A stretch of DNA of 64,000 nt from Candidatus Omnitrophica bacterium UBA6253 (GTDB taxonomy: Bacteria; Omnitrophota; Gorgyraeia; Gygaellales; Profunditerraquicolaceae), in contig DJVP01000008.1 in NCBI GenBank assembly GCA_002441245.1, positions 106,540 to 170,539 of the forward strand, given 5' to 3'. Made by a program: the position numbers and the translations under genes. This document shows positions 82 to 55,109 of this stretch, one piece after another. Every line of letters starts with the position of its first letter. Position 1 is the stretch's first letter. Below the pieces are notes generated by a model. It saw nothing but the letters and a program-made list of their open reading frames with translations. It did not search any database and was not told where the DNA came from.

Positions 82-3000
82 ATGGTGTCGGCAATGTTAA
101 TATTGGCGGTTTTAGGCGTAGGGATGGTTATTTATGCTGTCTTTGGAGTATTTAGCTCGCCGAGTGAAACAGGGGTTAAAAAAAGCGATAAAAAGCCAAC
201 TCTATCAGATGACCCGAACAAAGAACAAAAAATACAACGACTGCAAAAGCAAGTCTCTGATTTAGAGAATGAATTAAGCCAGATTGAGATTGTGCATGAG
301 AAAGAAAAATACGAATTTATAGCAGCTAAAGAAAAAGAGGCTAGTTTTTCCGATGAGCTAAAACGCAGAGAAGAATGGGTGGCCAAAGCGGAAGCGGAAT
401 TATCCAAGATAAAGCCGGAGAACCTGGATTTAAAGAATAAATTTATCGCCAAAGAAAATGAATTGCAGGAGGAATTTGCTAAAAATGTTAACTTGTCACG
501 GGAGATCCGTGAAATCAAGGTTTCTTTAGAAGCAAAAGAAGCAGAGGCCAAGGCTAAGGAAGAGCAAGTGCAAATACAAAAGCATCAGATTGAAAAGCAG
601 ATAAAGGATATTAATGAGTATTTGGCAGTTATTGCCGAGTTTAAGCGCAAAGAGAAGATCAGCGAATGGATTCCTAAGTCAGAGTTTAATAAATTGAATG
701 AAGAATATACCCAATTAGAAAAGGATTTGGAGGCCAGCCAGGAAAGATTAAAGAGTTTTGCTGAAGAGATTGCACATCTTCGCCAAGGGTTAAAAACAAA
801 AGAACCTCCGGTGGAAGAAATTAAAAAAGAAGAAGCCCCGCAAAAAGAATCTCCAGCAGAAACAGTTCAGAAGGCAGAGGAGGCCCCAAAGGAGGAAACC
901 CCGGTAGAGATTGAGCAAGAATTATCAGGATCCTTAAAAGAAGAAGATCATCCTGTAATAGCTGAGCAAAAGGAAGAAGAGTCCAAGGTAAAGCCACAGG
1001 CAACCCCGCGTATAAGTCTGGACAAGGTAAGGAATATCGGGATCATGGCGCATATTGATGCTGGTAAAACTACTACTACTGAAAGGATACTTTTTTATAC
1101 CGGCCGGTCATATAAAATCGGTGAGGTGCATGATGGTGCTGCAACCATGGATTGGATGAAGCAGGAGCAGGAACGCGGCATAACTATTACTGCTGCAGCT
1201 ACTACCTGTTTTTGGAAAGATCACCGGATCAATATTATCGATACCCCCGGACATGTTGATTTTACAGTTGAAGTGGAACGTTCTTTGCGTGTTTTGGATG
1301 GGGCTGTCGCGGTATTTTGCGCCGTTGGCGGAGTGGAACCGCAATCAGAGACAGTATGGAGGCAGTCCGATAAATATCATGTTCCCAAAATTGCCTTTAT
1401 AAATAAAATGGACCGCACCGGCGCCGACTTTTTTAGCGTATTAAACGGTATCGAAAAAGATTTGGGGGCTAACGCTATCCCTTTAGAGATTCCTATAGGA
1501 AGTGAAGATAAATTCCGTGGCGTGATTGATTTAATCGACATGAAGGCTTATATTTACGATGAAACATCTTTGGGTAAAGAATTTACTGTCACTGAAATTC
1601 CAGAGGAGTACAGGGAGCAGGCGATAAAATACCGGCACATTATGGTAGAGCGTGCAGTCGGCTTAGATGAGAATCTTATGAAGAAGTTTTTGGAATCAGA
1701 AGAATCAATTACGCAAGCTGATTTGTATCAAGCTATCCGCCAGGGAACTATTTCCAATAAGATGGTTCCGGTTACCTGTGGGGCATCTTTTAAAAATAAG
1801 GGGGTACAGAAATTATTAGATACTATTGTTGCTTTCCTGCCTTCGCCGCTAGACCTGCCGCCGGTAGAAGGCGATGATGCAAATGATCTGCAAAAGAAAT
1901 TACAGCTTAAGGCGGATATCAAAGAACCTTTTTGCGGTCTGGCTTTTAAGGTGCAGGCTGATCAGCATATGGGTAAACTTGTTTATGTTCGGGTGTATTC
2001 GGGAATTTTATCTACAGGTACATATATTCTTAATGTGCTGAAAAATAAGAAAGAAAGAATCGGCCGCATTGTACAGATGCATGCTAACCAGCGTGAAAAT
2101 ATCGATTATGCCTTTGCCGGTGATATCGTGGCTGTGCCGGGGTTAGCTAACACTATAACCGGAGATACGCTTTGTGATGTGGATAATCCTGTAATTCTGG
2201 AAGCGATAAAATTTCCTACGCCTGTGATCTCTTTGAGCATTGTGCCTAAAAGCCGTGGCGATCAGGATAAATTGGGTAAGGGCTTGGCCAAACTCACAGA
2301 AGAAGATCCTACGTTTAAAGTAGAAACTGACGAAGAAACTAAAGAGGTTATTCTTACCGGAATGGGAGAGTTGCATTTGGAGATTATTGTTGATAGGTTA
2401 AAAGAAGAATTTGGGGTTGAGGCGATCGTAGGCCAGCCAAAAGTCGCTTATCGGGAAACTATTTTGAAGCCGGCAAGCGCGGAAAGCAAATACATTAAAC
2501 AATCCGGCGGGCGTGGTCAATATGGCCATGTAGTTTTAGAGATCGCTCCCAATAAAGCCGGAGAAGGGTTTGAGTTTATTGATAGTATTAAGGGGGGCGC
2601 AATCCCGCGTTCATTTATCCCAGCGGTTGAAAAAGGGGTAATTGAGGCCATGCAAAAAGGCGTCTATGGAGGATATCCGGTTGTGGATGTAAAAGTAGAA
2701 TTAGTCGATGGCTCATATCATGAAGTGGATTCATCAGAAATTGCCTTTAGAATGGCAGCCATATTTGGATTTAAAGATGCATTCATGAAGGGCAGCCCGG
2801 TTTTTCTTGAGCCCAGCATGAAGCTGGAGGTTTCAACTCCCGAGGAGTATGTAAATGGCTGTGTAGGGTTTATATGTTCGCACCGCGGGAAAATCTTAAA
2901 CATAGATGCTAAAGCCAATCAAAAGATCATCTCAGCTGAGGCGCCTTTAGCAGAGATGTTTGGATATGCTACTAATTTCCGTTCGCTTTCCAGCGGTCGG

Positions 3001-3105
3001 GCCAATGCTACTATGGAGTTTGATAAATACACCCAGGTTCCCGGTGAAATTGCCCAGAAAATTCTTCTAGAAAGGCAGAAACAAAAAGGAGCCACTGGGA
3101 GCTAA
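82..3105 (+). CDS. fusA: EF-G family translational GTPase with ~310-aa N-terminal extension (predicted TM helix + K/E-rich coiled coil)
   Basis: The C-terminal ~690 aa has G1 [10 protein letters not shown]3 [12 protein letters not shown], the EF-G domain IV loop SGGRGQYGH, and domain V. The N-terminus [24 protein letters not shown] is hydrophobic, followed by a long E/K-rich heptad region. The ORF is continuous with no stop. Confidence 0.8.
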
Positions 3106-4024: not shown

Positions 4025-7000
4025 ATGAAAAACAAATTTCCCAAGGTAGTTTATTTTTTACTTTGTTTTCTGCTTATCTTTGAGCAATCCGGATTTGCTC
4101 AAATAGCCGGACAGCTGGATATCTCCGGATATTTTACCGGTCTGCGTAATGTACTAAGCCAAGATAAATTTCGGCCTTTACACTTAAGATATCTTGCCTA
4201 CGACAATGTCAATAACAACTTTAAGCTGCTTTTAGATAAAGGCGATTTTGGCAAAGCGCAAGGATTATCTCAGGATGGGGCTGTTCCTGGGGAGAAGTTG
4301 GAAAGTTCAACCAAAGAGCTTTTAAACTATTTCTTTATCGGCATCTCTTTGCCTAATGATAGCTTTTGGGTTAACCTCCGGCCTGATTCTCCGGATAATA
4401 TTATAGATCCCTATTTGGCCCAGACTGATGTAGGCAAGATTCTTCTTGAGGCTGACTTGCAATTAAAAAAGGATACCGCAAGCTTTACTTCTCCGCAGAC
4501 CAGAGAAGGTAAAGAATATTGGGATAAACTCTACAAGAAGTCGGAAGAACTTTTTGGTGCAGAATCCATAACCATTCCTACTTTAACCAGGCCTTGGATA
4601 GTACCGAATGAGATAATTATAAGAGAGTCAACCGATAATGCGTATATTTACAAAGCAACTCTTAAAGTAATGCTGGAGCAGGATTATCTAAAAGACTCGA
4701 AAATCTACAATTTTACCGATGAAAGATTTAAACAGCTTAATGAATATGCATCTGGATTGATCAGGAAGAATATTCTCCCTAAGCTAAATAAAGATATAAA
4801 CACCGCCAAAAGATACGCACCTTTAAGGCAAGTTTATTATTCGCTTATCCTCGCGCAGTGGTTTAAACAGAAGTTTTCCGGCAGAAGCGGGCTTTATAGC
4901 AATCTTATCGACAAAATGAACTTAACCGGGCTTACTTCTAAAGATTCATGGTCTAAAGCCGTTTATTTTCAGGCTTATCAGAAATCATTCAAGGAAGGTG
5001 AATATAGCATTAAAGAGCCTGTCTATACCATTAAAGGGCAGACTATTAGAAGCTATATGAGCGGGGGCATAAGCCTTGGGGGAGAGGCTATGAGAGGAGC
5101 GATAAGATCTGGAGTGAAGATTGCAGGTAACCCACTCATGCCAATAGCTGTTATTAATCCTAAAGGAATTTCAGGTGAGTTCCTCCCGAGTGGCCAAATG
5201 CAAATCGATCCATATTCAGGAAGTATAAATATTGAATTTGAAAATGCCCCGCAAGCCAGCTCTCCGGTAATTGAACAGTTGCCGGTTACCCAAACTGATA
5301 TTAATATGGCCAAGTATATAATTGGCCATATTAACTCCCGACCTCTTGAGCCCGAATCAAGATATAGCTTGAATGCGGAATTAGAGAAAGAACCGACCCT
5401 TCCTTCTCACATTGTAGTTAGGCTTAAGGAAAATATAGGGGATGGCGGAGAGAAGATAGGCAGACGGGTATTGGATTTAGATGTAAGGGCGGGCGGCACA
5501 AGATTAATTATCGGCCCTTTTAATCTCTATAATCTTAGTGATAATGGTTTAGGTTCACAGATATTTGGTATCTTGGGCCAGGCAATAAAAGATAAAATTC
5601 CCGAAGTATTTGTTGGATATGTGACTAATAAGGAAACCCTGGAAAAGCTACGCATAGCAATAATTAGAGACGGCAAAGCAGAATATTTAGATAAAGAGGA
5701 TAATTGGAAGAAGGCAGAATATAAGGCAATGAATCGGGCTGCTGAAGATGAGATATTAAGCGAGGTAGTTGCCCAAACTCTTTGGGGTAGTTTATTAAAG
5801 CGGCTTGGTTTTGATAACTTTGACATCAGGGTTGACTTAAAAGGCAGAAGTATTACTGGCCTTCAGGCTCTTGGGTATATCCCCAGCCCGGAAGAGATGG
5901 AAAATAAACCAACGGCCATATTATCCATAACGGCCACAAAAAAATCTTCCAGTTCGCCAATTACAACTATAGATGTAATTCGTGACGATAATCAATTCCT
6001 TCCAAAAGGCAGAACAGAAATTTTAAAAGCCGATCTTAATGTATGTTTGGTCGTTGTGGCTATGGACAAAGACGGTAACAGGTTTATGGCACATTTTCTA
6101 CCTAGCGGCCATATTCAGGGGGGTCTTTCTAACCCGGATCTCGTTAGATACTATTTTGAAACTCATTTGGAAAAGATGTTGCAGGATATGCCGAAAGATA
6201 ATGTTAAGGTGGCAATAATTTCTTCAACAAAAGATGATAGTTTAAAAGGACTGTTAGCAGAGTTGGAAAAAAACGGTCCTGCCCCATATTTAATTACTCT
6301 TGAAGATATAGAAAACTTTCTTAAGAAGCGGAATATAAATGTTCCTTTGGAGCAGAAGGATGATAAGGAATACATGAAAACAGTTACGTTTGACCAGGAA
6401 GGTAATGTGAAGATTGTTTATTTGGATGCTAAAGGGAAAGATAAAGAAAGAATTATTCAGCTTGCGGGAGTAAGTTCCGCATCCTCACCAGTAGTTTATT
6501 CGGGAATCAGGGGTGCGGTAGAAAACTTACCCGCTTTTTCGTCGATTCAACAGTCAACAGCCAGCTCGCCGGTTAAAAAACAGAAGCTTGTTTCTTCCAA
6601 TCTCAATGAGTTGAGAGCTGAATTTAATGCCTATCTAAAGAACGAAGGGTTGGATCAGTATGGTAATCTCAAAGGTTTATTTTCAAATGAAACCATGGAA
6701 ATCTTAATAAATGACCGTTCAGCCAAGCCAGTTTTTTTACAGGTACTTGAAAAATCAGACACGGAGTCTTTGCAATTCAGGGACTTAGGGCCCGCAAGGC
6801 AATTATTGGGTTACCAGGATATTGAAAAAGTTAAAGAGTTAATTTCTTCTTACAGCGTTATTGGCATTGGAAGCGTCAAGCTAGCTAATGAATTGGCAGG
6901 AAAAGACAAGAAGGTTGTAGTTGGAATTACAGACCGTTATACCTCTGAGGAATTTACCTTGATTCCTAATTACCGGGTAGCAAACAACAGGAGATGTTAT

Positions 7001-10000
7001 ATCCCGCTTCCCGGAGGACTGTTTTTATCAATAAAAGGTTCAGGGCAAAATTCCTATAGCAATAGACCAGCGTATTATATTAATGACAGAAAAGGAAAAC
7101 GCGTTGAAGGCGCCGTTGGTATAGATGAAATCTCTGAATTAGGAAACTTAGCGGGTGTTAGTTTAAGAGAGTCTGGCATGTCCATGGATTTGGGTTATCT
7201 TCCCATCAATAATAAGTTGATCGGGTTGGAAGGCGCTAAGGAAGAAAATGTAGCGCTTGTGTTTAGCTTAAGCCTGGATTATCATCGCTTGTCAAAATTA
7301 CCCCAGATAATTGCAAATAACGGGTTAGGATTTTTATGTGAGAGGATATCCGCGGTATTGGATGCGATAGGAGAGTTAGATAATCTAACCGATAAAATGC
7401 ATATTAAATTATCATCAGACAGGATACTAAAGCCTGATCAGCTTATGTTGATAATAATGCTGAATATGGGCAAGACTGAGGGGTATAAACAGAACAATGG
7501 GCTGTATCATGAAACTCTTCACGATCAGGATGTTGATTTTACCGGAATTACTTATGATGTGGAAGAGCTTATTGGGACTCAATCCCCGGAAAATTCCGGT
7601 AAAAATAAGGAGCTGTATCTTAACGGAATTAGTCAAAGGGTTAAGATGTTATTAAGAATGCTTAATAACAAAGATACAGTGTTTTTATTCCCGAACCCGG
7701 TACAAACATTAAGAGTATTATTTAAAGGGTATTTTGAGAATTTAAGCGAAGAATACCTGAATCTGCTGGAAAATAATCAGAATGGCCTTGCTGAAATATT
7801 TCAGCCGTTGTCTAGCCAATACAGCCAGAAATGGTTTAGTATTTTCGGTAAAAATAGCCCAGAAGAGGTATCAGCTGAATTTAGCAAGCTATTAAAGGAA
7901 GAATTAGAAAGACGTGGTAGGGATATCTCTAAGGGGTCAAATCTCGCCAGCTCGCCGGTTACGGAATTGCGCGAGGCTGTGCAAAAATTGCACAACAAAG
8001 AATTTAATATTAATGGCGGGGTATATGTGATCAACATTGAAAAAGGCAATTCTATCTGGGATAGCAGGATTGTTTTAAAGAATAAAGATAATCTAGAGGT
8101 GGGGCATTTTGATCTTGATACAAAAAGAGACGCTATCAATAACGGCGGAATGTTAAATGTTGCGGAGGGGGAGAGAGGGAGGGGCTTTGCGGTATTTATC
8201 TTAAGTAAATTAAGAGAGGTCTTCCCTAAGGGTAAGGAGCTCATTACGGAAATTGTACACGAGGAATCTCTGGAATCCCTGAAGAATAATGGGTCAATTA
8301 ATGTGGTCCCGATAGTGCAATTATTCAATACTGCCGGCTGGGAACTTATCGCTGCCGGCTATTACGACGGTATCGGCCAGTATCATGAGAGAGATTTTGC
8401 CGAGCAGATGAGCGTGGATGAAAGCAATGGAGAAGGAGGAACCGTAATTGCCAGATTCAAACCTAAAATCGCGCAGGCATATTTACCCGGGTTTGATTAT
8501 CTTTCTTCCGCTTCTTCGCCGCTGGGGCCGGATACTCAGGTAAAGATTAATGAAGCAAAATTGTTTAATTCTAGGGAGTTTGGCCTTATTAGAAAACCCG
8601 GGATTTCCATTGATTTATCTCAACAATTTTCCAGACGACACGTTGTTATAGGGGATATCCATGGTGATTTTGAAGGTCTTAAACAGGACCTTAGAGATGC
8701 GGGGTTAGTAGATATGGGCGGAAACTGGATTGGCGGGGACACTGTGTTAATCCAGATGGGGGATATGATAGACCGCGGAGAACAGTCATTTGAGACTTAT
8801 CAGTATCTTTCTGAGCTAAGGTCAAAAGCCCGGTTTCAGGGTGGAGACGTGAAGATGTTGTTAGGCAATCATGAAAATATGTTTTTCCGGGGAATGTCGG
8901 GAGATAGCAAGCAGTTCTCTGATTGGATAAATAATCTTGGTAGTAGCGAGTTTAAGAATATTTTGCAGGATACAATAAAAAATAAAGGCATTGGAATAGC
9001 CAGGAGAATGATTTTGACCGGAGAATCCGGTGAGTTTGCAAAATGGAGGGAACTTTATCTTGGGTTCTCCGAAGATATTAAAAAAGGGGAAATTCAGGCA
9101 GCCTATGAGGAATCAGGGGTGTTGTTTGTTCATGGAGGAATAACAGCCAGGAATAAACATAGTGTTAGCGCTAAAGGAGAAGCAGATTTCTTGAACCGGC
9201 AGTTGGCGGTTAAGAACTTTGACGGGGTAAGGGGTGCGCTGTGGAATAGTTTTGGGTATGAGGTTGACGGCGAAGGAGTAGATTATTTACAAATAGTCGC
9301 TCATACTCCGGAATTGAGAGAGGGCGCACAGGTAAGAGTTTCTCCTAATGGTAGAGTTGTGAATGTTGATGTCGGGCATTGGAAGGGTTACGGTGGCAAC
9401 CGCGGATATGCTGAGATTAAAGGTAACAGGCTTCAGGCCTATGCTTTGGTAAAAGACGAAGCTGTTTCTTCTGCGGCAGACGTTTTTTTTGTAGATAAAG
9501 TCAATAGAGCTTTGTTAGAAAATCCCCAGTATCCGATGCGCATGGTTGAAGTTGCTAATCCTGAATACGGCCTGCGTAATCCTAACGAGGAAGGATTAGG
9601 TTTACACGGCACAGATTTGACTAAACTTAAAAACATCCTGGAGAAAGGGTTAGGCGTAGGTCAAGAGGCCAAGGCTGTTTTTCTGGGCGTTAATCAAAAA
9701 GGAGAGCCGTTTACCCGGAATGAAGCTTATTTATCTTTTGGTAATGTTAATTCTCCGGGGAAAGTAATCCTGGTTTTTGATGTTACTAATGTGGATGTTT
9801 TAAGTAAATGGGATTCGGGGAAAAGAATAGCCATAGGTATAGAACGTATTAATAAGGAAGCTGTAATTGGAATAATAGCAAACATAAAGGATAAAGAAGA
9901 GATTAAGGATATAGTCGGCAACAGGCGCATCCCGGTATATTTCTTTGAACCAAAATTCCCAGGGTTAAAGAGTTTATCTAGCGCCAAACTGCGGGACGTT

Positions 10001-12103
10001 ATTGAGAAAATAAATGAAATTGAACAAGAGAATTATATCTTGTCGCTTAAGGTTGGTTCTATGGAAGAGCAAAAGCGCATAGAGGGAGAACGCGGGGATA
10101 GGATGCGCGAACTGTTGGAGCAAATGACTCCGGAACAGCTAACAGCTTTATCGTCAGTTTCAGAAAGATCCTCCTCAGAAAAGACCGTTTCTTCTCCATT
10201 GGAAGAAATTATAGTATTGGCGCGTACTGTTTTCACCCGCGATCCCCAGGTTGAGTTAAATGGATTATTTGAAGATTATTCGAGCCAACGAAAGAGGTTG
10301 CTTAATTTATATGACGGAGTTGCAGGGATTGCTAAGAAAATCGCCAAGATGAATCCTGGCGTTGTGTTGTATCCGGCAAGTGGCAGTGATATTTCTGCCG
10401 CGGCATCCTATGCGGATACAATAGTAAGCATTGATAATCAGGATATTTTTACGGTTATTAATAATTTTAATTTATTTTTGGATAAAGAAGAAGCGCTTAA
10501 GGAGCAGATAAATAGCTATTTAGAGAAAAAGCTCGAGCTAGGTTTTAATTCCTCAGGCATCAGGCAGGGTTTTATCGAGTATCTTGCGGAATTAGTGTTG
10601 TTAGGAGCAGATTTAAGTACATTTAAGATAGCGGATGATCGATTCTTAGGCGATAATCGCGTTACTACAGTGGAATTTAGCATTGTGTATAACAATGGCT
10701 CAGAGCGTAAAATTCGCCATACGCATATTAAATATGTATTTGACGGCCAGCCTTTACCAGAGGATATATATGGCGAGTTAAAAAAAGTAATTGGGGACAG
10801 GGCAGATGTTTTATTATTATCTAAAGCTGGTGCTGACCTGGCTGGAGATAAGAAGTGGGTGGAGCCGATTAGCAATATATTGGCTCCGGGGACAACTATT
10901 GTTTCTGACTCTGTTTTAAATATCGCTTCTGCTAAGAAATTAGGTGTTTCTGGAAAAGATGTCGGGAACTTAGGTTTGTCGAGAAAGAATAACTATGGCT
11001 ACGCCGATAAATCAGAGAATTTAAATTTTTACGAGATACCGCTTGCCGCCTCTTCGGCTATCCAGCAGCCAAGGGTGGAGCCAAAAGAAGATCTAGGGTT
11101 TATTTCCATTAGTAATGGAGAAAAATTGTTCATGCGTAAAGGGCAGGAAGAAAATATAGTTTCAATAGCATTTGATAATAAGGATGGTGAACAAATTGGC
11201 TTTGTTGATATAATGCTTAGAGAGAGTCTTATAAATTACATATATATAGATCCAAGATTTAGAAGCGAGGGTTATTCCAAGATTATTTTGGATACCATTT
11301 TAAATAAATTACAGGATCAATCATTTATGGGCAGAGAATTTAGTTTTGTTACCTTGTATGTACAGAATCCCTTGTTAGTGGGGTATTTATTGGAAAGAAA
11401 ATTCATCCTGAATCCTTATACCCCGGATGAGCAGAAACTTATGATCGAAGTTATAATACCTAAAAAAGAAGCAAAAGAAATAAAGAACGAAGATAGTATT
11501 CCTTTATACGTGAAGGATCCTGCGAAAAGAGATGGTATTAGAGGCTACGTGAACAAGATGGGATTTAGATTAGTGGAACAACCTATTGAAGGCGAAACAA
11601 GCAACGTAACTATATATGTAAAATATACACTTTATTTCTCGGATAAAAATAGTAATACTCAAATTAACAGCGCTTCACCTGTTTATAACGAAGGACAGAG
11701 AACAGGCGGAATTGACTTTCGCGCGCTACCTATAGCCAGACAACCGGCATTGATTAAGCAAAAGGTCAACGAAAGCTTTATCCATTCGATTCCGTTAGCC
11801 CAGCTAAATAGCGAATGGCTTCAAATAGAGAATATGCTCGCGGCAGGTATTACGCCGTCAAGCGAAAGAATTAAAGAATATCTACAGTCCTGCTGTCAAA
11901 AACAGGATTTTAAGCCGGATATTGATAAAATACTGTCTTGTATTGCCGATATACTCAGGCTGGAAGAAGAACGAGTATCTAGTACGGATATATCTTTAAA
12001 AGAAATGTTGGCACTTTTAGAATCAGCTAAGCCGACTAATGAAATGCAACTTGCATTAACGCAGATTACGGTAGAAGCTAAAGAACCTGGATTAATAGAA
12101 TAA
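4025..12103 (+). CDS. giant secreted multidomain protein (2692 aa) with calcineurin-like metallophosphatase (PPP-type) domain and GNAT-like domains
   Basis: Signal peptide MKNKFPKVVYFLLCFLLIFEQSGFA. The central region has GDIHGD, GDMIDRG and GNHEN phosphoesterase motifs. GNAT motif-A-like RGRGFAVFIL and RSEGYSKIIL segments are present. A recurrent (A/S)SSPV motif is noted. Confidence 0.8.
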   Translation: MKNKFPKVVYFLLCFLLIFEQSGFAQIAGQLDISGYFTGLRNVLSQDKFRPLHLRYLAYDNVNNNFKLLLDKGDFGKAQGLSQDGAVPGEKLESSTKELLNYFFIGISLPNDSFWVNLRPDSPDNIIDPYLAQTDVGKILLEADLQLKKDTASFTSPQTREGKEYWDKLYKKSEELFGAESITIPTLTRPWIVPNEIIIRESTDNAYIYKATLKVMLEQDYLKDSKIYNFTDERFKQLNEYASGLIRKNILPKLNKDINTAKRYAPLRQVYYSLILAQWFKQKFSGRSGLYSNLIDKMNLTGLTSKDSWSKAVYFQAYQKSFKEGEYSIKEPVYTIKGQTIRSYMSGGISLGGEAMRGAIRSGVKIAGNPLMPIAVINPKGISGEFLPSGQMQIDPYSGSINIEFENAPQASSPVIEQLPVTQTDINMAKYIIGHINSRPLEPESRYSLNAELEKEPTLPSHIVVRLKENIGDGGEKIGRRVLDLDVRAGGTRLIIGPFNLYNLSDNGLGSQIFGILGQAIKDKIPEVFVGYVTNKETLEKLRIAIIRDGKAEYLDKEDNWKKAEYKAMNRAAEDEILSEVVAQTLWGSLLKRLGFDNFDIRVDLKGRSITGLQALGYIPSPEEMENKPTAILSITATKKSSSSPITTIDVIRDDNQFLPKGRTEILKADLNVCLVVVAMDKDGNRFMAHFLPSGHIQGGLSNPDLVRYYFETHLEKMLQDMPKDNVKVAIISSTKDDSLKGLLAELEKNGPAPYLITLEDIENFLKKRNINVPLEQKDDKEYMKTVTFDQEGNVKIVYLDAKGKDKERIIQLAGVSSASSPVVYSGIRGAVENLPAFSSIQQSTASSPVKKQKLVSSNLNELRAEFNAYLKNEGLDQYGNLKGLFSNETMEILINDRSAKPVFLQVLEKSDTESLQFRDLGPARQLLGYQDIEKVKELISSYSVIGIGSVKLANELAGKDKKVVVGITDRYTSEEFTLIPNYRVANNRRCYIPLPGGLFLSIKGSGQNSYSNRPAYYINDRKGKRVEGAVGIDEISELGNLAGVSLRESGMSMDLGYLPINNKLIGLEGAKEENVALVFSLSLDYHRLSKLPQIIANNGLGFLCERISAVLDAIGELDNLTDKMHIKLSSDRILKPDQLMLIIMLNMGKTEGYKQNNGLYHETLHDQDVDFTGITYDVEELIGTQSPENSGKNKELYLNGISQRVKMLLRMLNNKDTVFLFPNPVQTLRVLFKGYFENLSEEYLNLLENNQNGLAEIFQPLSSQYSQKWFSIFGKNSPEEVSAEFSKLLKEELERRGRDISKGSNLASSPVTELREAVQKLHNKEFNINGGVYVINIEKGNSIWDSRIVLKNKDNLEVGHFDLDTKRDAINNGGMLNVAEGERGRGFAVFILSKLREVFPKGKELITEIVHEESLESLKNNGSINVVPIVQLFNTAGWELIAAGYYDGIGQYHERDFAEQMSVDESNGEGGTVIARFKPKIAQAYLPGFDYLSSASSPLGPDTQVKINEAKLFNSREFGLIRKPGISIDLSQQFSRRHVVIGDIHGDFEGLKQDLRDAGLVDMGGNWIGGDTVLIQMGDMIDRGEQSFETYQYLSELRSKARFQGGDVKMLLGNHENMFFRGMSGDSKQFSDWINNLGSSEFKNILQDTIKNKGIGIARRMILTGESGEFAKWRELYLGFSEDIKKGEIQAAYEESGVLFVHGGITARNKHSVSAKGEADFLNRQLAVKNFDGVRGALWNSFGYEVDGEGVDYLQIVAHTPELREGAQVRVSPNGRVVNVDVGHWKGYGGNRGYAEIKGNRLQAYALVKDEAVSSAADVFFVDKVNRALLENPQYPMRMVEVANPEYGLRNPNEEGLGLHGTDLTKLKNILEKGLGVGQEAKAVFLGVNQKGEPFTRNEAYLSFGNVNSPGKVILVFDVTNVDVLSKWDSGKRIAIGIERINKEAVIGIIANIKDKEEIKDIVGNRRIPVYFFEPKFPGLKSLSSAKLRDVIEKINEIEQENYILSLKVGSMEEQKRIEGERGDRMRELLEQMTPEQLTALSSVSERSSSEKTVSSPLEEIIVLARTVFTRDPQVELNGLFEDYSSQRKRLLNLYDGVAGIAKKIAKMNPGVVLYPASGSDISAAASYADTIVSIDNQDIFTVINNFNLFLDKEEALKEQINSYLEKKLELGFNSSGIRQGFIEYLAELVLLGADLSTFKIADDRFLGDNRVTTVEFSIVYNNGSERKIRHTHIKYVFDGQPLPEDIYGELKKVIGDRADVLLLSKAGADLAGDKKWVEPISNILAPGTTIVSDSVLNIASAKKLGVSGKDVGNLGLSRKNNYGYADKSENLNFYEIPLAASSAIQQPRVEPKEDLGFISISNGEKLFMRKGQEENIVSIAFDNKDGEQIGFVDIMLRESLINYIYIDPRFRSEGYSKIILDTILNKLQDQSFMGREFSFVTLYVQNPLLVGYLLERKFILNPYTPDEQKLMIEVIIPKKEAKEIKNEDSIPLYVKDPAKRDGIRGYVNKMGFRLVEQPIEGETSNVTIYVKYTLYFSDKNSNTQINSASPVYNEGQRTGGIDFRALPIARQPALIKQKVNESFIHSIPLAQLNSEWLQIENMLAAGITPSSERIKEYLQSCCQKQDFKPDIDKILSCIADILRLEEERVSSTDISLKEMLALLESAKPTNEMQLALTQITVEAKEPGLIE

Positions 12104-39690: not shown

Positions 39691-40797
39691 ATGCATAAAC
39701 TAACATTTTACCCCTTAGGGAATGCGGATTGTTGTTTAATTGATCTAGAGAACAAAAAGAAGATTTTGTTTGATTATGCGAATTGTAAGAATCCAGATGA
39801 TGATGAGGATAAGCGGGTAGATCTAGTTTCTGCTCTTAAATCTGATCTCGAGAAAGATAAAAGAGATTATTATGATGTTGTTGCTTTCACCCATGCGGAT
39901 GATGACCATATAGGAAAGTTTTCGGAATTTTTCTATCTTCAGCATGCTGAAAAATATCAAGAAAAAGGAAGAATTAAGATTAATGATTTATGGGTGCCAG
40001 CGGCCTTGATAATTGAAGAGGGGTTGGAGGGTGAAGCTGCGATACTAAGGGCGGAGGCTAGATATAGGTTAAAAGAAGGAAAAAATATCATGGTATTTTC
40101 ACGACCAGATCGTCTTAAGGATTGGCTTGAGAAGGAAGGGATAAAACCCGAAGAAAGAGAAAGTCTTATTACAGATGCAGGACGACTTGTTCCAGGTTTT
40201 GATAAATTGACAGAAGGAGTAGAGTTCTTTGTACATTCTCCTTTTGCTGTCCGACAGGAAGATAAGCTGATCGATCGCAATGAAGCCTCTTTAATAATGC
40301 AGGCAGTTTTCAGCTATGACAATGTCGATACCAGGCTTTTTCTAAGCAATGATGGTACTTATGAAATTCTGTCTGATATTGTTAACATAACTAGGGGGCA
40401 CAAAAGGGCTGATAGATTGGGATGGGATATTATGAAGATACCCCATCATTGTAGTTATTTATCCTTAAGTGATGAAAAAGGTAAAGAAATAACTGAACCT
40501 GTAGAAGAAGTTAAATTTTTATTTGATCAGGGAGGAGAGAAGGGGTTGCTTGTTTCTACTAGTGATATTATTCCCGATACAGATGAAGAGCAGCCACCAC
40601 ATAAACAGGCAGCTAGTTATTATAAGAAAAGGGCTGATGAAATTAAAGGAGAATTTGTTGTTACTATGGAACATCCTAACAAGGTAAACCCCCAACCTAT
40701 TGTTATCAACGTAGACAGTTATGGCGCTACCTTAAGAAAATCAATTGCTGTTGGTGGTTTTGATGTTATCAATCGATCTGCTCATCGCGCAGGTTAA
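39691..40797 (+). CDS. ComEC-type metallo-beta-lactamase-fold hydrolase (putative nuclease)
   Basis: GNADCCLIDL followed by THADDDHIG (HxDxDH variant, as in the ComEC C-terminal MBL domain). The C-terminus ends …SAHRAG. Confidence 0.65.
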   Translation: MHKLTFYPLGNADCCLIDLENKKKILFDYANCKNPDDDEDKRVDLVSALKSDLEKDKRDYYDVVAFTHADDDHIGKFSEFFYLQHAEKYQEKGRIKINDLWVPAALIIEEGLEGEAAILRAEARYRLKEGKNIMVFSRPDRLKDWLEKEGIKPEERESLITDAGRLVPGFDKLTEGVEFFVHSPFAVRQEDKLIDRNEASLIMQAVFSYDNVDTRLFLSNDGTYEILSDIVNITRGHKRADRLGWDIMKIPHHCSYLSLSDEKGKEITEPVEEVKFLFDQGGEKGLLVSTSDIIPDTDEEQPPHKQAASYYKKRADEIKGEFVVTMEHPNKVNPQPIVINVDSYGATLRKSIAVGGFDVINRSAHRAG

Positions 40798-40809
40798 TTT
40801 ATTAAGATT

Positions 40810-43038
40810 ATGGATTTTCCTCTACCATCGAAGATAGTTAACGCAAACGATCTTGTTATTCCTAGGGCGCGCGATATTGCTTTTTCCATGCAATCTGGAG
40901 TTTTGGCTTATGTTAAACTTCTAGAATGTCGTTCTCTTAACGCAGGATTTGAGAGCATTATTTTTGATGTAGAAGTTGAGCTCGGACAAAAGAATAACGT
41001 ATATGCAATCGAAAAAATAGAAAAAATAGCTATAATCTTTGATCCAAGGGATAGCTCTGTTCCGCTGGTTATTTCTTTGCGCAATAATTTTCCTAAAGCG
41101 CCGCATACAACTCTCGGAGATGAACATTTTCCTGCCAGCCTATGTCTTTATGACCAGCCTTTTAGCGAAATTAAGATTTATCTTACTCCTACAAGGCTAA
41201 TAGAGCGAATTCGTCAATGGCTTGCCGATACAGCAAGAGGAAAGCTGCACGGAGAAGATCAGCCTCTCGAACCCCTGTTTCTTGAAGCAAATAAACAGCT
41301 TATTATTCCATTTGATCTATTTGATTGTTTTAATCCCGATAATCCTCCCAAATTAGAAGTTTATATAACAGAGTTTAACAAGACGCATACTTTTATCGCT
41401 GAGAAAGAGGGAAATGGTTCAGTCAGAAAAAAGGCTAATTTTACCGCGGTTATCTTTCAATGTTCTCCTCAAGTTCATGGCGCTATTTCAAATATACCTA
41501 GAAACCTATACTCACTTCATCAATATACTTCTTCTCTGGGGTTTGATTTATTAAAGAAACTTAGGTCTATTTTACAGAAGTGGCATATTGAAAAGAAACT
41601 TTCTAGTATTCAGACTAATTATCTTATGTTGATAATCGCTTTCCCTAAAACAAGAAGTAAAGGAAAAGCGATAGAAGCTACAGATGTATGGGGATTTTTA
41701 TTGGAAGCGGATATTAAGGGCATCGGTATCGAATTGGGTTTATGGGAAGACCTCAATGGTGTTTTAGGAATGCTTTTCCCTGTTGATGAAAATAAAAAAG
41801 GAGAAGCAATTCTTCTGGACATGTGTCGTACTATGTATTCTTTTTCTCGAGAAATGGCCGCCGGACAAAATGGCCTGACAATAATTAACAAAAACAAAAT
41901 TTGCTTAATTGGCGTTGGTTCTCTTGGATCTCAAGTTTTTCTAAATTTAATAAGAGCAGGATTTGGGGAGTGGACATTAATTGATAATGATTTATTTTTA
42001 CCACACAATCTTGCTCGACACATCCTTGATAGGAATGCTATAGGATATGCAAAGGCACAATACTTAGAATGGATAGCAAACAATATGATCGATGGGGAAC
42101 CTATAGCGAGGGCCATCCTGAAGGATGTTCTAAAGACAGATGATTACGCGGATGATTTAAAAATAGCGCTATCTCAGGCAGATGTTATTCTTGATTGTTC
42201 TGCGTCATCCGCTGTTGCTAGGCTTATTGCTCGTGATTTGTCTTCGACAGCCCGAAGGATGTCGTTATTCTTTACTCCATTAGGGAACGATTCTGTATTA
42301 TTGGCAGAGGATTCTAAACGTGAAATTACTTTAGATCATGTCGAAATGCAATATTATAGACTTCTTGTTTATGAAAAAGATTTAGAGGGACATTTATCCG
42401 TGCCTGGTATTCAACTGCGGTACGGGAATTCGTGCCGTGATATTAATACCTCTTTGTCTCAGGAACTTGCTGCTTTACATTCCGCGATAGGGGCTAGAGC
42501 TTTTAGGAATATTTTCTTAGAAACAAGTGCAAAAATCTTAATTTGGAGGACAAATCCAGCTGACTTAAGTGTTAAAGCATTAGCTTTTTCTCCAGGGAAA
42601 CTATCTGAAATCAAGACTTTAAATTGGACTATTTGTGTTGATCCGTGGGTAGTCGAGAAGATTCTTGCTGCTAGAATTTCTAAGCTTCCCAATGAAACCG
42701 GAGGAATATTAGTCGGTTCATTTGATTTACAAAGAAGAGTTGCATATATTCTTGACACGGTATTATCTCCTCCAGATAGTAAAGAATGGCCTACTGTATA
42801 TATCCGCGGATGTCAAGGGTTAGCTAATAGGATGAAAGAAATAGGTGATATAACTATGGGAAGATTAGAATATATGGGTGAGTGGCATGCCCATACTGGA
42901 TCATGCTGTTCCCCTAGTGAAGAGGACAAGCTCGCTTTTTCATGGCTTTCAAATTGGCGTCTACTTGATGGGCTTCCTGCTGTAATGTTAATTGCTGCTG
43001 AAGGCAAATATGCTATTTACATCGAAGCTATGAACTAG
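40810..43038 (+). CDS. E2-like / E1 (ThiF) / JAB(JAMM) triple-domain ubiquitin-like conjugation enzyme (Cap2+Cap3-like fusion)
   Basis: Central ThiF Rossmann motif LIGVGSLGSQVFLNLIRAGFGEWTLIDND…NLARH. C-terminal JAMM motif E…GEWHAHTGSCCSPSEED (HxH-x7-S-x2-D), preceded by ETGGILVGS. The N-terminal ~300 aa has candidate E2 Cys in HFPASLCLYD. Confidence 0.75.
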   Translation: MDFPLPSKIVNANDLVIPRARDIAFSMQSGVLAYVKLLECRSLNAGFESIIFDVEVELGQKNNVYAIEKIEKIAIIFDPRDSSVPLVISLRNNFPKAPHTTLGDEHFPASLCLYDQPFSEIKIYLTPTRLIERIRQWLADTARGKLHGEDQPLEPLFLEANKQLIIPFDLFDCFNPDNPPKLEVYITEFNKTHTFIAEKEGNGSVRKKANFTAVIFQCSPQVHGAISNIPRNLYSLHQYTSSLGFDLLKKLRSILQKWHIEKKLSSIQTNYLMLIIAFPKTRSKGKAIEATDVWGFLLEADIKGIGIELGLWEDLNGVLGMLFPVDENKKGEAILLDMCRTMYSFSREMAAGQNGLTIINKNKICLIGVGSLGSQVFLNLIRAGFGEWTLIDNDLFLPHNLARHILDRNAIGYAKAQYLEWIANNMIDGEPIARAILKDVLKTDDYADDLKIALSQADVILDCSASSAVARLIARDLSSTARRMSLFFTPLGNDSVLLAEDSKREITLDHVEMQYYRLLVYEKDLEGHLSVPGIQLRYGNSCRDINTSLSQELAALHSAIGARAFRNIFLETSAKILIWRTNPADLSVKALAFSPGKLSEIKTLNWTICVDPWVVEKILAARISKLPNETGGILVGSFDLQRRVAYILDTVLSPPDSKEWPTVYIRGCQGLANRMKEIGDITMGRLEYMGEWHAHTGSCCSPSEEDKLAFSWLSNWRLLDGLPAVMLIAAEGKYAIYIEAMN

Positions 43039-43065
43039 CAAAGAAAAGTTGCAATAGGCGGAATA

Positions 43066-44097
43066 ATGGGAGACCAAATGAACAAAAGAGGAATTGGTTT
43101 AGCTCTCTCTGGTGGAGGGAGTAGAGCGATAGCTTTTCATTATGGGGTTTTGGAAGCTATGCATGAACTCGGAATTGACCAGAAAATAGATGTAGTTTCT
43201 GCCATATCAGGTGGAGCTGTTATTGGCGCATTATGGAATTTGTACTCTAAAGACTGGTCATGTTTTTCATCAAAGATAGAACTAATTCTCAGGGATGGGC
43301 TAGAAACCTCAATATTAAGCAGATTAATACATCCAAAATTAATTTTTGCAACGATATGTCAGTTGGGGGTTGATTGTGATATTATGGCAGATGTTTTGGA
43401 CAAAAAGGTGTTAGATTATATTAAACTTAATGAGATTCCAGAAAAGCCGTTATTGATTTTAAATGCCACCGAACTAAAAACCGGAACTAATTTCAAATTT
43501 TCCAAGACTATTTGTGGTTCATATAGATCATCAGGTTGTGTATCTGGTTTACGTTTAAGCCAAGCGGTAGCTTGTTCAGCAGCTTATCCGTTAGTATTTG
43601 CTGTAAAAAAACTTATTTTAGATTCCGCTGATGATGTTTATTTGACGGATGGTGGAGCTTATGATTGTATTGGAGCTAATGCTTTAATGCCAGATAAAGG
43701 CGAAACGTCTATTCTAGTGCAAAATTGTGAGACGATTATTATTAGCGATGCTTCATTCCCATACATTGAGAATCGGCCAAGATTAACTAGGAGTATTGTA
43801 GATGGACTTTTAGCTTCTTATGGGGCATCATCAAACAGAAACAGAGCACTTATCTATAATAAACTTTATATGCTAAATAAAAGTGGCGAAATTCCCTTTC
43901 TGGGGACCATAAAAATGGATAGCAAACATCCTGATTTAACTACTGGCTGGAATAAGAAAGAGTTAGAATTGATAAATAACTATAAGACTAATTTTAAACC
44001 GGTTACCGGTAATGCATTGGTAAGTTTAAAAAATCGCGGTAAGGAATCGGCAAAAATCATTATTACTAAGTATCTCAGCCATCTTTTAAATAATTAG
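43066..44097 (+). CDS. patatin-like phospholipase (CapE-like effector)
   Basis: Oxyanion motif LSGGGSRAIAF, nucleophile region SAISGGA and DGG catalytic Asp motif LTDGGAYD. Confidence 0.75.
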   Translation: MGDQMNKRGIGLALSGGGSRAIAFHYGVLEAMHELGIDQKIDVVSAISGGAVIGALWNLYSKDWSCFSSKIELILRDGLETSILSRLIHPKLIFATICQLGVDCDIMADVLDKKVLDYIKLNEIPEKPLLILNATELKTGTNFKFSKTICGSYRSSGCVSGLRLSQAVACSAAYPLVFAVKKLILDSADDVYLTDGGAYDCIGANALMPDKGETSILVQNCETIIISDASFPYIENRPRLTRSIVDGLLASYGASSNRNRALIYNKLYMLNKSGEIPFLGTIKMDSKHPDLTTGWNKKELELINNYKTNFKPVTGNALVSLKNRGKESAKIIITKYLSHLLNN

Positions 44098-44106
44098 GAG
44101 GCAGAC

Positions 44107-45054
44107 ATGTCGTTTATTAAAATACATATGCTTGATGTTGGGAAAGCAGATTCTATTATTGTCGAGTTAGCTGATGCTTTTGGAAATACTACTACTTTAT
44201 TAATTGATGGTGGAAAAAAGGAAAATTCCAAAAAAATTATCAGCTATTTTAATGAAATGAAGAAATTTCCCGAATGCATTATTTGTACTCACTTAGATCG
44301 GGATCACGTTGGTGGTTTATCTTCTATTGTAGAAGAATTTAAAGAAAAGATTAGATGTATTTGGACTCATGTTCCGGCAAGACACAACAAAACTCTTAAA
44401 AGTGCTCTTTATGAAAAGATCAAGGTAGACGGAAGATCGAGAATCATTTTTTCTTCTATTGAAGATCTCGAAGGTTTTGTGAATATCGCTGAAAAATATG
44501 GAATTCCTATTTTTGAACCGTTTTCGGATTATTCCGATGAAAAAATTAAGAAATTTTGTTCGGTTTTTGGAATTAGGATATTAAGCCCTTCGCGAGAGTT
44601 TTATAATGGTCTTTTAGAAAAGATGAAAGAAGATTTTGGAATTATTAGCAGTAGGTCAATCAGAGACGCTATTGAATATGTGTCTGCGGCAACTTCTGAC
44701 CCATGTTCTGTAATTGGCATAGATGGTGCTGATACTCCTGAAAATGAATCTTCTGTAGTTTTTGAAATTAACATTTTTGCTAAGAAATTTTTGTTTACTG
44801 GAGACGCTGGAATTTTAGCTTTTGATAAGATTCGACACGATCTTAAAGAAGTATACTGGTTAAAAGTCCCACATCATGGAAGCATAAAGAACCTAGACGG
44901 GGATTTGGTAGAAAGATTGAGACCCAAAGTTGCATTTATTTCTGCCGATGGGTCTTCTCATCATCCAGATAGTTCACTTTTAGCTTGCCTTGAAAAACAT
45001 CAAGTTAAGGTCAGAAGTACTAATTCTGAAGGCAATATAACAATAGAAGTATAA
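44107..45054 (+). CDS. second ComEC-type metallo-beta-lactamase-fold hydrolase
   Basis: VGKADSIIVEL followed by THLDRDHVGG (HxDxDH); later PHHGS motif. A paralog of the 39691 gene. Confidence 0.65.
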   Translation: MSFIKIHMLDVGKADSIIVELADAFGNTTTLLIDGGKKENSKKIISYFNEMKKFPECIICTHLDRDHVGGLSSIVEEFKEKIRCIWTHVPARHNKTLKSALYEKIKVDGRSRIIFSSIEDLEGFVNIAEKYGIPIFEPFSDYSDEKIKKFCSVFGIRILSPSREFYNGLLEKMKEDFGIISSRSIRDAIEYVSAATSDPCSVIGIDGADTPENESSVVFEINIFAKKFLFTGDAGILAFDKIRHDLKEVYWLKVPHHGSIKNLDGDLVERLRPKVAFISADGSSHHPDSSLLACLEKHQVKVRSTNSEGNITIEV

Positions 45055-53870: not shown

Positions 53871-53877
53871 CCTAAGC

Positions 53878-55101: not shown

Positions 55102-55109
55102 GGTAGGCT

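Follow-up and report, generated by a model that had tools for sequence, protein, structure and literature searches.

The window analyzed here is a 64-kb stretch of DNA taken at its full length. At positions 4025..12103 (+) it contains an open reading frame that starts with ATG and codes for 2692 amino acids. A preliminary description of this DNA had introduced the ORF with the remark that giant ORFs are rare in bacteria; the remark does not apply in Omnitrophota, where 2692 aa is an ordinary size. The ORF itself, as then delimited, is real: six contigs of independent assemblies carry the identical protein, and an assembly artefact is therefore ruled out as its origin. The MAG GCA_028718365.1, labelled Candidatus Omnitrophica, encodes it. 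The neighboring genes code for EF-G, cyclophilin and UvrD, the UvrD helicase gene being the one downstream; there are no transporter genes nearby.

The protein begins with a predicted Sec signal peptide (4025..4099, +; aa 1-25, MKNKFPKVVYFLLCFLLIFEQSGFA, followed by Q), recognized by sequence features: a lysine-rich n-region, the protein's only hydrophobic stretch (aa 8-27), and G-F-A just before Q26. A signal peptide had been named at the outset, and it is conserved in the family of relatives described below, in which the whole signal peptide is near-invariant and its c-region, FEQSGFAQ, almost invariant. There follows the family-defining N-terminal domain of ~320 aa, the N-cap (4100..5065, +; aa 26-347), which 119 of 119 homologs share at 60-80% identity and which is modeled by AlphaFold with a pLDDT of ~85 (aa 47-347). 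No match to it was found in Pfam or NCBIfam, and no fold match in the PDB or BFVD. The N-cap gives way to a disordered spacer (5066..5254, +; aa 348-410; AlphaFold pLDDT 28-36) that is not conserved among homologs.

The other end of the protein is similarly constant. A conserved linear motif, GGIDFRALPIARQP (11705..11746, +; aa 2561-2574), has the family form GGIDFRxLPIxTQP, in which (43 sequences) G27, G28 and D30 are invariant and I29, R32, L34, P35 and Q39 nearly so; its AlphaFold pLDDT of 50-60 places it outside any fold. Beyond it lies the C-cap (11795..12064, +; aa about 2591-2680), a five-helix bundle with 3 conserved cysteines, a pLDDT of ~95 (AlphaFold) and conservation in at least 109 of 119 homologs. 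It, too, has no fold match in the PDB or BFVD, and no credible match in Pfam. (A technical note: that the two caps have no known fold is a statement about Foldseek comparison with the PDB and BFVD.) The entire protein contains only 7 cysteines.

The cargo modules

Between the caps lie eight cargo modules, M2 to M9, all on the + strand. Pfam recognizes nothing in the 2692-aa protein outside the phosphatase and GNAT regions; an NCBIfam scan of the whole protein finds matches at the PPP region only, all of them to PPP-type phosphatase models. Neither database identifies a protease or peptidase domain.

The most securely assigned module is M6 (8525..9463; aa 1501-1813), which had been picked out initially as a PPP-type phosphatase. 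It carries the signatures GDIHGD (aa 1543), GDMIDRG (aa 1579) and GNHEN (aa 1614) and matches Pfam Metallophos at 40 bits against a cut-off of 21.5 (E 7.7e-10). Its best solved relatives are the Shewanella PPP-type structures 2zbm, 2z72 and 1v73 (E 2e-12 to 8e-12, over the N-terminal half of the domain only); PP2A catalytic subunits match at E 0.004-0.02. M6 is accordingly confirmed as a predicted PPP-family phosphatase with intact active-site motifs. It shares GDxHG, GDxxDRG and GNHE with the Shelph-type PPP phosphatases (PDB 1v73, 2z72, 2zbm), but these are stand-alone proteins of about 340 aa, whereas M6 is one bead in a modular protein of 2692 aa.

At least two GNAT-like modules had also been proposed, and here only the weak similarity stands: Pfam gathering scores are reached at neither. 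M5 (7961..8509; aa 1313-1495), which has R-x-x-G-x-A at aa 1384-1389, has the GNAT chain 3bln as its top PDB profile match, at a weak E of 0.057, and no Pfam match. M9 (11063..11668; aa 2347-2548) is matched by three GNAT Pfam models at E 1e-3 to 2e-3 (18.6-19.6 bits, against gathering scores of 20.7-27), and its R2413-x-x-G-x-S is a partial match to acetyl-CoA motif A (R/Q-x-x-G-x-G/A). HHalign relates M5 to M9 with 86% probability over 51 columns.

The other modules are known by their distribution and conserved residues. M2 (5270..5947; aa 416-641) is an orphan: searches of 1.84 billion representative proteins and of the local set turned up no homolog, and it has no Pfam match. M3 (5963..6478; aa 647-818), also without a Pfam match, recurs at differing positions in P0002, P0008 and P0013; a CheD-like reading of its sequence gained no support from the Pfam search. 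The conserved, enzyme-like M4 (6575..7945; aa 851-1307) has about 75 representative homologs, some of them stand-alone proteins of 450-550 aa, and its invariant residues include R139, G157, G179 and D319 (module numbering). M7 (9479..10186; aa 1819-2054) has no Pfam match and is common to P0007, P0014 and others. M8 (10202..11047; aa 2060-2341) has ten local homologs, in which H172-T-H174 and S206-K-A are invariant. Neither M4 nor M8 has a match in Pfam or the PDB, and sequence-based readings of M4 as kinase-like and of M8 as methyltransferase-like are unsupported by Pfam or PDB profile searches.

The junction motif

The pentapeptide [AS]SSP[VIL] occurs six times in the protein (starting at aa 411, 642, 819, 846, 1308 and 1496), and a seventh copy reads VSSPL; the seven copies counted in the preliminary description are thus all present. 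From the composition of the protein, 0.019 copies would be expected by chance, and 2000 shuffles generated at most one. In order along the + strand, the copies are ASSPV at 5255..5269 (aa 411-415); SSSPI at 5948..5962 (aa 642-646), where homology to P0008 and P0013 begins; ASSPV at 6479..6493 (aa 819-823); ASSPV at 6560..6574 (aa 846-850), with homology to P0003 and P0004 beginning exactly at aa 846; ASSPV at 7946..7960 (aa 1308-1312); ASSPL at 8510..8524 (aa 1496-1500); and VSSPL at 10187..10201 (aa 2055-2059). Three decayed copies occupy other module junctions: VSSAA at 9464..9478 (aa 1814-1818), with homology breakpoints at aa 1808-1822 and with VSSPV in P0006 and ASPV in P0005 at this junction; ASSAI at 11048..11062 (aa 2342-2346; breakpoints at aa 2340-2349); and SASPV at 11669..11683 (aa 2549-2553), which precedes the C-cap and is replaced by xSSP[VIL] or a close variant in most homologs.

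The placement of the motif between modules rather than inside folds, as originally suggested, is borne out by low pLDDT and by the breakpoints: AlphaFold pLDDT is ~30 just ahead of the first copy and below 50 in the SASPV stretch, and 49% of homology breakpoints fall within 10 aa of a motif, against 7% for random positions. Conservation in homologs, a check that the preliminary description had proposed, also favors it. When orthologous junctions are compared, the sequence on either side has diverged and acquired indels but the SSP(V/I/L) core persists, even where the flanking domains are only 35-60% identical, and homologs read SSPV at the degenerate copies of the 2692-aa protein. Across the family the motif is observed 214 times against 2.4 expected, an enrichment of about 90-fold. 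Linker position, breakpoints and conservation together are therefore the opposite of the outcome that had been named as fatal to the idea, in which non-conserved copies would lie inside folded domains. The (A/S)SSP(V/I/L) pentapeptide is a junction element: every module, like the C-cap, is directly preceded by one copy, which lies behind a variable disordered spacer. The pentapeptide is kept by selection at the protein level while its surroundings drift.

What of the DNA that encodes it? The copies at 6560 and 7946 are specified by an identical 15-mer, GCCAGCTCGCCGGTT; the identity had been noticed already, with the first copy placed one nucleotide off (its correct position is 6560-6574), as had the near-identical copy at 5255-5269, which differs from GCCAGCTCGCCGGTT by two bases. 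The DNA flanking the identical 15-mers is unrelated, and the seven copies use mixed codons; selection therefore acts on the protein. Motif codons at 37 loci are biased (TCG, 31/75 against a background of 0.12; GCC, 25/44 against 0.25). TCG precedes proline in 41% of cases in the motif and 27% at other Ser-Pro pairs (p 0.012); because these other pairs prefer TCG too, most of the TCG bias can be put down to codon-pair preference at Ser-Pro in general.

The motif is neither universal in the family nor exclusive to it. Between 38 and 60 of 120 members (about a third to a half) lack it, so that the core mechanism of the family does not need it; these members share no single alternative motif and have scattered variants such as AASPV and SSAV. 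Conversely, the motif is also present in proteins whose N-cap is divergent or missing, and P0144 carries it in a linker repeated 7-fold in tandem. In 28 kaa of neighboring genes it does not occur. Genome-specific motif density gave p 0.12, on few data. In all six frames of the 64-kb window, just one other real ORF contains the motif: it codes for an exported protein with Ig-like repeats, and the motif is located at a domain junction.

A family of Omnitrophota proteins and its analogs

The 2692-aa protein belongs to a large family of paralogs found almost exclusively in Omnitrophota. A family search matched 537 proteins with conserved head and tail and variable middle (1480-4489 aa long among the matches listed); 430 loci are in species-representative genomes, with several paralogs per genome, and of the best 80 of these 430 loci, 62 carry the label Omnitrophota or Omnitrophica. 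All members share one layout: the signal peptide and N-cap come first, the conserved C-terminal tail comes last, and enzyme modules that can be exchanged independently form a variable string in between. The conserved signal peptide, N-cap, GGIDFR motif and C-terminal helical bundle by which members are recognized are all present in the 2692-aa protein, and its modular anatomy is consistent with its having been called polyprotein-like. The N-cap and the C-cap occur exactly once per protein and never in its interior; internal caps derived from fused tandem genes were looked for in the family and not seen. Concerted evolution of the caps can be rejected, because paralogs from one genome differ from each other as much as do paralogs from different genomes (N-cap identity 66% and 63%, respectively). 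A second, divergent N-cap subfamily is found in the same phylum. Cargo recognized by Pfam in paralogs includes kinases, Fic, methyltransferases, GGDEF, HATPase, DnaJ and hexokinase. The neighbors at 80 family loci are housekeeping genes (rsmI/glmS, dnaN-gyrB-gyrA, cyclophilin), among which no conserved protease, glycosyltransferase or secretion partner was found.

Giant genes with ORFs of more than 20 kb have been described in Omnitrophota (bioRxiv 10.1101/2023.11.21.568195; Nat Microbiol 2023, PMC10066038), as have very long multi-enzyme proteins, whose class 1 comprises proteins of at least 10,000 aa (bioRxiv 10.64898/2026.06.07.730766). The multi-enzyme giants resemble the present protein and its family in phylum, in a predicted signal peptide and in a repertoire of many tiled enzyme domains (methyltransferase, HATPase, GNAT, HAD and HD); processing into smaller polypeptides has also been proposed for giants, by C39 or S8 peptidase domains of their own (bioRxiv 10.1101/2023.11.21.568195). 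Yet they are at least 10,000 aa long, a length of which the 2692-aa protein falls short. No mention of conserved caps or of a junction motif was found in either preprint, and the word "linker" is absent from both. The family is previously undescribed; the literature on polyproteins yielded nothing relevant.

Among better-known systems, the MARTX toxins of Vibrio and relatives offer a close parallel: conserved termini likewise frame an exchangeable mosaic of enzymes that differs between close relatives, and short inter-module linkers likewise carry a defined site. The differences are nonetheless substantial. The glycine-rich RtxA repeats found at both ends of MARTX toxins, and their internal autoprocessing cysteine protease domain, have no match in the 2692-aa protein (Pfam, NCBIfam); MARTX toxins have a C-terminal type I secretion signal and a linked transporter, in place of which there is here an N-terminal Sec-type signal and no transporter nearby; and the Omnitrophota family, whose caps are unrelated and have no Foldseek match, has several copies per genome and is hardly found outside one phylum. 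Polymorphic toxins (Rhs, CdiA) also combine a conserved trafficking part with fast-exchanged enzymatic cargo in several paralogs per genome, but in these a single C-terminal toxin is followed by an immunity gene; here the modules lie between two conserved ends, the C-terminus is a conserved cap, and the next gene codes for a UvrD helicase. Cellulosomal scaffoldins and glycoside hydrolases, and Neisseria-type glycosylation regions, are comparable as exported multi-module proteins with Ser/Pro-rich disordered linkers; they differ in that the cargo here is not carbohydrate-active and each junction has one strict pentapeptide instead of a low-complexity tract.

Export and the role of the motif

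The features of its N-terminus suggest that the protein is exported by Sec. It might instead be a cytoplasmic multi-enzyme scaffold, anchored to the inner membrane through an N-terminal helix that stays uncleaved, and acting on substrates of its own cell: the cargo enzymes of the family use cytosolic cofactors (ATP, SAM, acetyl-CoA or GTP), and no secretion system is linked to the gene. However, the hydrophobic segment has lysines in front of it and acidic or neutral sequence behind it, which by the positive-inside rule puts the bulk of the protein outside; the small-residue G-F-A site is conserved, and the cysteine content is very low. Export or membrane association is also what the 2026 preprint predicts for the multi-enzyme giants of the phylum (bioRxiv 10.64898/2026.06.07.730766). 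We regard retention in the cytoplasm as improbable. For an exported protein, the dependence of its cargo on cytosolic cofactors suggests action inside another cell, and the cargo repertoire, together with predicted export, leads us to infer that the modules act there as effectors. A parasitic or predatory lifestyle has been proposed for Omnitrophota, with which action inside another cell agrees.

What, then, does the motif do? Our leading interpretation, held with a little less than even confidence, is that it serves an exported multi-effector protein as a site of processing or recognition. It would be recognized by a factor acting in trans, most likely a site-specific endoprotease cutting after the aliphatic residue (P2 = Pro, P1 = V/I/L), and the cut would set each module free with its N-terminus clean. 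Proline at P2 and V, I or L at P1 are typical of the classic substrates of subtilisin and elastase, and the motif resembles protease substrates of the Ala-Ala-Pro-Val type. Against cleavage speak the lack of any protease domain match in the 2692-aa protein (Pfam, NCBIfam), the housekeeping neighbors at 80 loci with no conserved protease among them, the 38-60 of 120 members that do without the motif, and the residues after it, at the would-be P1', which show no preference across the family. One can also think of the motif as a passive hinge or module header, a structural cap (Ser-Ser-Pro, then an aliphatic anchor) at the N-terminal edge of the module that would be inherited with it upon duplication or transposition and recognized by nothing. 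This possibility, on the doubtful side but a serious one, draws on the position of the motif directly ahead of the conserved module start with a varying spacer upstream, on the many members that do without it, on the tolerance of VSSAA, ASSAI and SASPV in the 2692-aa protein, and on the lack of a linked partner gene at 80 loci. But the same pentapeptide precedes unrelated modules (phosphatase, GNAT-like, unmatched folds, C-cap) as would not be expected of a cap specific to one fold; it survives indels and flanking-domain identities of 35-60%, and it occurs in proteins whose N-cap is divergent or absent, including the tandem array in P0144. A general O-oligosaccharyltransferase might, alternatively, modify a motif serine after export and so stiffen the long linkers and shield them from proteases. 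Bacterial PglL-type enzymes target serines within Ala/Ser/Pro-rich low-complexity regions, and O-glycosylation is frequent on linkers of secreted modular enzymes; an Ala/Ser/Pro-rich site in linkers that are disordered and rich in Ser and Ala, within a protein predicted to be exported, suits glycosylation as well as it does cleavage, and the other copy of the motif in the window, at the junction in the Ig-like-repeat protein, fits too. Nevertheless, there is one copy per junction, at its downstream edge, where a protective role predicts several sites along the linker; the aliphatic residue required after the proline is not known as a property of PglL-type sites; and no transferase was identified, nor is one linked at the 80 loci. 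We think O-glycosylation unlikely. Finally, selection might have acted on DNA, with GCC AGC TCG CCG GTN serving as microhomology for module swaps and the peptide a by-product. The identical 15-mers, the non-random codons at 37 loci (TCG and GCC enriched) and the fast turnover of cargo, always at motif positions, between close orthologs speak for such a recombination joint; the many different codons among copies, the dissimilar flanks, the mostly codon-pair origin of the TCG preference, the lack of concerted evolution of N-caps, and the length of 15 nt, which is short for homologous recombination, make it very improbable indeed.

Omnitrophota are widespread, uncultured and ultra-small bacteria for which a life on other cells is suspected. 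No feature of theirs is more striking, or less well understood, than the long multi-enzyme proteins, and the present family gives tractable access to these: its members are of 1.5-4.5 kaa, are spread over hundreds of species and have two sharply defined orphan domains. The junction rule divides any motif-bearing member into testable modules; the motif by itself is useful for domain parsing, including that of modules without homologs, in proteins of which domain databases leave ~85% blank. More speculatively, and with rather small probability, Omnitrophota may have evolved, independently of MARTX, a Sec-exported effector polyprotein: the two orphan-fold caps would form a delivery device or dock to one, the enzymes would enter a host or prey cell, a protease would cut at the motif, and the family would be the main effector arsenal of these bacteria. 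If the motif is indeed a processing site, it would represent a polyprotein strategy that is rare in bacteria and would provide a catalogue of candidate effectors.

A modular family between two caps

The giant ORF opens with an ATG and occupies 4025-12103 of the forward strand, encoding 2692 aa. It is not an artefact of assembly, because the identical protein is recorded on six contigs, NCBI MAG GCA_028718365.1 and independent run assemblies among them. Among about 5.8 billion proteins searched, 537 relatives emerged, and wherever the source is named the label is Candidatus Omnitrophica or Omnitrophota; the listed 120 of the 537 range in length from 1480 to 4489 aa. Only two segments of the query are near-universal in these relatives: aa 1 to ~350-410 (50-80% identity), the head, and the last ~140 aa, the tail. 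Head and tail occur exactly once in each protein (no internal copy of either was found within the family proteins), while the parts that lie between are each common to three to ten relatives. The architecture of the family is modular: two conserved caps and a changing cargo.

The first 26 residues are near-letter-identical across the family (a K-rich start, a hydrophobic core, then FEQSGFAQ) and contain the sole hydrophobic segment of the query. They bear out, at the level of sequence, the signal peptide of the preliminary description: probably a signal for Sec export, with cleavage after G-F-A. In the AlphaFold2 model (31-sequence alignment), aa 47-347 form an ordered alpha/beta domain (pLDDT ~85), and aa 348-410 are disordered (pLDDT ~30) right up to the first copy of the junction motif. 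In the tail, the conserved linear motif GGIDFRxLPIxTQP is followed by ~25 aa of variable sequence and then by a five-helix bundle (pLDDT ~95) with three conserved cysteines.

The cargo includes the PPP-family phosphatase that had been recognized at the outset: aa 1501-1813, with intact signatures and with Shewanella cold-active phosphatases as its closest relatives. The two GNAT-like modules proposed with it fare less well: the likeness is there, at aa 2347-2548 and 1313-1495, but at sub-threshold level only. For the module at aa 851-1307 there is a family of about 75 representatives, as yet without a name, in which stand-alone proteins occur, some with signal peptides. The orphan 226-aa module at aa 416-641 (window 5270-5947) finds only the query's own cluster among 1.84 billion representative proteins, and modules aa 647-818, 1819-2054 and 2060-2341 gained no identity from all of Pfam, or, for aa 2060-2341, from a PDB profile search. 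To judge by these sequences cargo turnover is quick, because P0002, the closest orthologue among the 120 of 537 relatives listed, sits at the same cyclophilin-linked locus and has just four of the eight cargo modules, in another order and with other spacing. Precomputed Pfam domains in paralogues comprise methyltransferases, HATPase, GGDEF, HD, protein kinases, Fic, FHA, DnaJ, M48 and M23 peptidases, guanylate kinase, hexokinase, NUDIX and HEAT repeats, a repertoire also reported for Omnitrophota proteins of at least 10,000 aa (bioRxiv 10.64898/2026.06.07.730766).

A scan of one genome per species located 430 family loci. The best 80 of these carry 62 Omnitrophota/Omnitrophica labels, 14 of 'uncultured Planctomycetales' MAGs, three of 'bacterium' and one of Thermodesulfovibrionia, and many occupy conserved housekeeping positions: 25 follow rsmI/glmS, 18 follow dnaN-gyrB-gyrA and 7 follow a cyclophilin gene, as in the window. 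No secretion, protease or immunity genes were found linked to the query gene or to these best 80 of 430 loci. Several genomes have two or three copies. Head identity is 66% between paralogues of one genome and 63% across genomes; since divergence within genomes equals that between them, a gene-conversion family is excluded and the paralogues are, on sequence grounds, old and stable. A second subfamily, of the same phylum where named, has a head just ~30% identical (profile E-values 1e-48 to 1e-73). This divergent head (P0124-P0196) leads many other modular proteins of 800-3000 aa, with signal peptide, in which BLAST found no C-cap; in one of them, P0143, a GGIDLT persists close to the C-terminus, and the motif occurs five times.

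The junction motif

The pattern [AS]SSP[VIL] occurs at aa 411, 642, 819, 846, 1308 and 1496 of the query. With VSSPL (aa 2055-2059) this makes up the seven copies originally counted, where composition predicts 0.019 (maximum one copy in 2000 shuffles). SASPV, just before the tail, is a tenth copy, and VSSAA and ASSAI are degenerate ones. That these sites would lie in linkers, at positions conserved in homologues, has held. Alignments with relatives begin or end at aa 635-642, 823-846, 1301-1309, 1492-1499 and 2055-2062, that is, at the motif: 49% of 88 internal breakpoints are no more than 10 aa away from one of the seven copies, as against 7% for random positions (maximum 19% in 2000 trials). 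The others cluster at aa 1808-1822 and 2327-2349, the places of VSSAA (VSSPV in P0006, a homologue) and ASSAI. At orthologous junctions the upstream spacer varies in sequence and length and the motif core is retained (DYLSS-ASSPL, NYPAL-ASSPL, NH--P-ASSPL and SAGFSVSS-SSPV at junction 1496); the conserved part of the next module starts immediately afterwards.

The 120 listed proteins hold 214 strict copies (2.4 expected), or 474 by a broader pattern (18 expected). At least two copies are present in 44 of the 120 (72, broad) and none in 60 (38, broad). Most often the first copy comes after the head (aa 330-420); the last stands ~10-15 aa upstream of GGIDFR. Not one copy occurs in the 28 kaa encoded by neighbour genes at motif-rich loci, and a six-frame scan of the 64-kb window places the motif in just one real ORF besides the giant one. 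Omnitrophota modular proteins with a divergent head or without one also have it. In P0144, of the headless kind, GTSARSASSP(I/L), part of a 20-aa unit, recurs seven times at exact 20-aa spacing (aa 2208-2340): it seems that amplification has affected the linker element itself. The window's other motif-bearing ORF (57818-59974, forward strand) encodes an exported protein with a C-terminal membrane segment, apparent Ig-like repeats and only a weak Pfam match, HL_N-beta; its SSSPV ends one repeat and precedes a charged linker, and so also appears to mark a domain junction.

Is it the DNA or the peptide that is kept? The identical 15-mer GCCAGCTCGCCGGTT does encode two copies, at 6560-6574 (one base from the coordinate first assigned) and 7946-7960, and the near-identical copy at 5255 differs from it by two bases. 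Flanking DNA is mutually unrelated and codons are mixed, though not random: over 37 loci and the window copies, GCC encodes Ala in 25 of 44 cases and TCG the second Ser in 31 of 75, both being over-used. TCG is generally preferred at Ser before Pro (27% outside the motif, 41% within it, p 0.012), and this codon-pair effect accounts for most, perhaps not all, of the bias. With mixed codons and that general preference, we conclude that selection is mainly on the peptide; the motif is conserved at the protein level, and on this view the 15-mers are identical by chance, an outcome that codon context favours.

Other loci of the window

An EF-G ORF (82-3105, forward strand; annotated as 1007 aa in one source and 697 aa in another) has a ~310-aa N-terminal extension, with a hydrophobic helix (aa 5-24) and a long Glu/Lys-rich coiled-coil-like stretch preceding the GTPase domain: it could be a membrane-tethered paralogue or an over-extended start. 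The segment 29322-38054 (tRNA-Gln(CTG), a large serine recombinase and DUF2924 on the minus strand, then a ParB-DNA methylase fusion, an HTH protein and the terminase large subunit) looks like a phage-like element integrated at a tRNA gene. An operon-like block at 39691-45054 is reminiscent of defence or conflict systems based on ubiquitin-like conjugation. Its single 742-aa E2-E1(ThiF)-JAB fusion has two metallo-beta-lactamase-fold proteins (LmuA-like in PADLOC) and a patatin phospholipase on its flanks; a cyclase was not among the proteins detected in the block. The MoxR AAA ATPase and DUF58 genes at 52944-57809, followed by an 899-aa protein without Pfam match, are a typical MoxR-DUF58-type cluster with a large partner.

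Working and relation to known systems

The protein would be exported by Sec, and its cofactor-dependent cargo enzymes would act in the cytoplasm of another cell. A trans-acting factor would recognize the motif. What might that factor do? Cleavage after the aliphatic residue is favoured: each junction has a single copy, that copy directly adjoins the N-terminal end of the module, and a Pro with V/I/L after it is reminiscent of classic substrates of serine proteases. The case is a weak one, because no protease partner is linked and many members lack the motif. The Ala/Ser/Pro composition would suit O-glycosylation equally well, and such a site would serve as well for a passive hinge. What also inclines us to cleavage is that processing of Omnitrophota giant proteins has already been proposed (bioRxiv 10.1101/2023.11.21.568195).

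MARTX toxins are the nearest known system in logic, but their defining features (repeats, protease domain, type I secretion) have no counterpart in the query. Long multi-enzyme Omnitrophota proteins have been described (PMC10066038; bioRxiv 10.1101/2023.11.21.568195 and 10.64898/2026.06.07.730766); we found no account there of this family of smaller, capped proteins, of the two orphan domains in it or of a junction motif. Action in another cell would accord with the host-dependent way of life that has been proposed for these bacteria (PMC10066038). At two loci, L043 (46-6144 and 6141 onward) and L063 (644-9970 and 10001 onward), a family member is immediately preceded by a long ORF of 2032 or 3108 aa, and the two ORFs overlap or almost meet. 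Such pairs may be family members in tandem, and the loss of one stop codon would generate a much longer fused protein.
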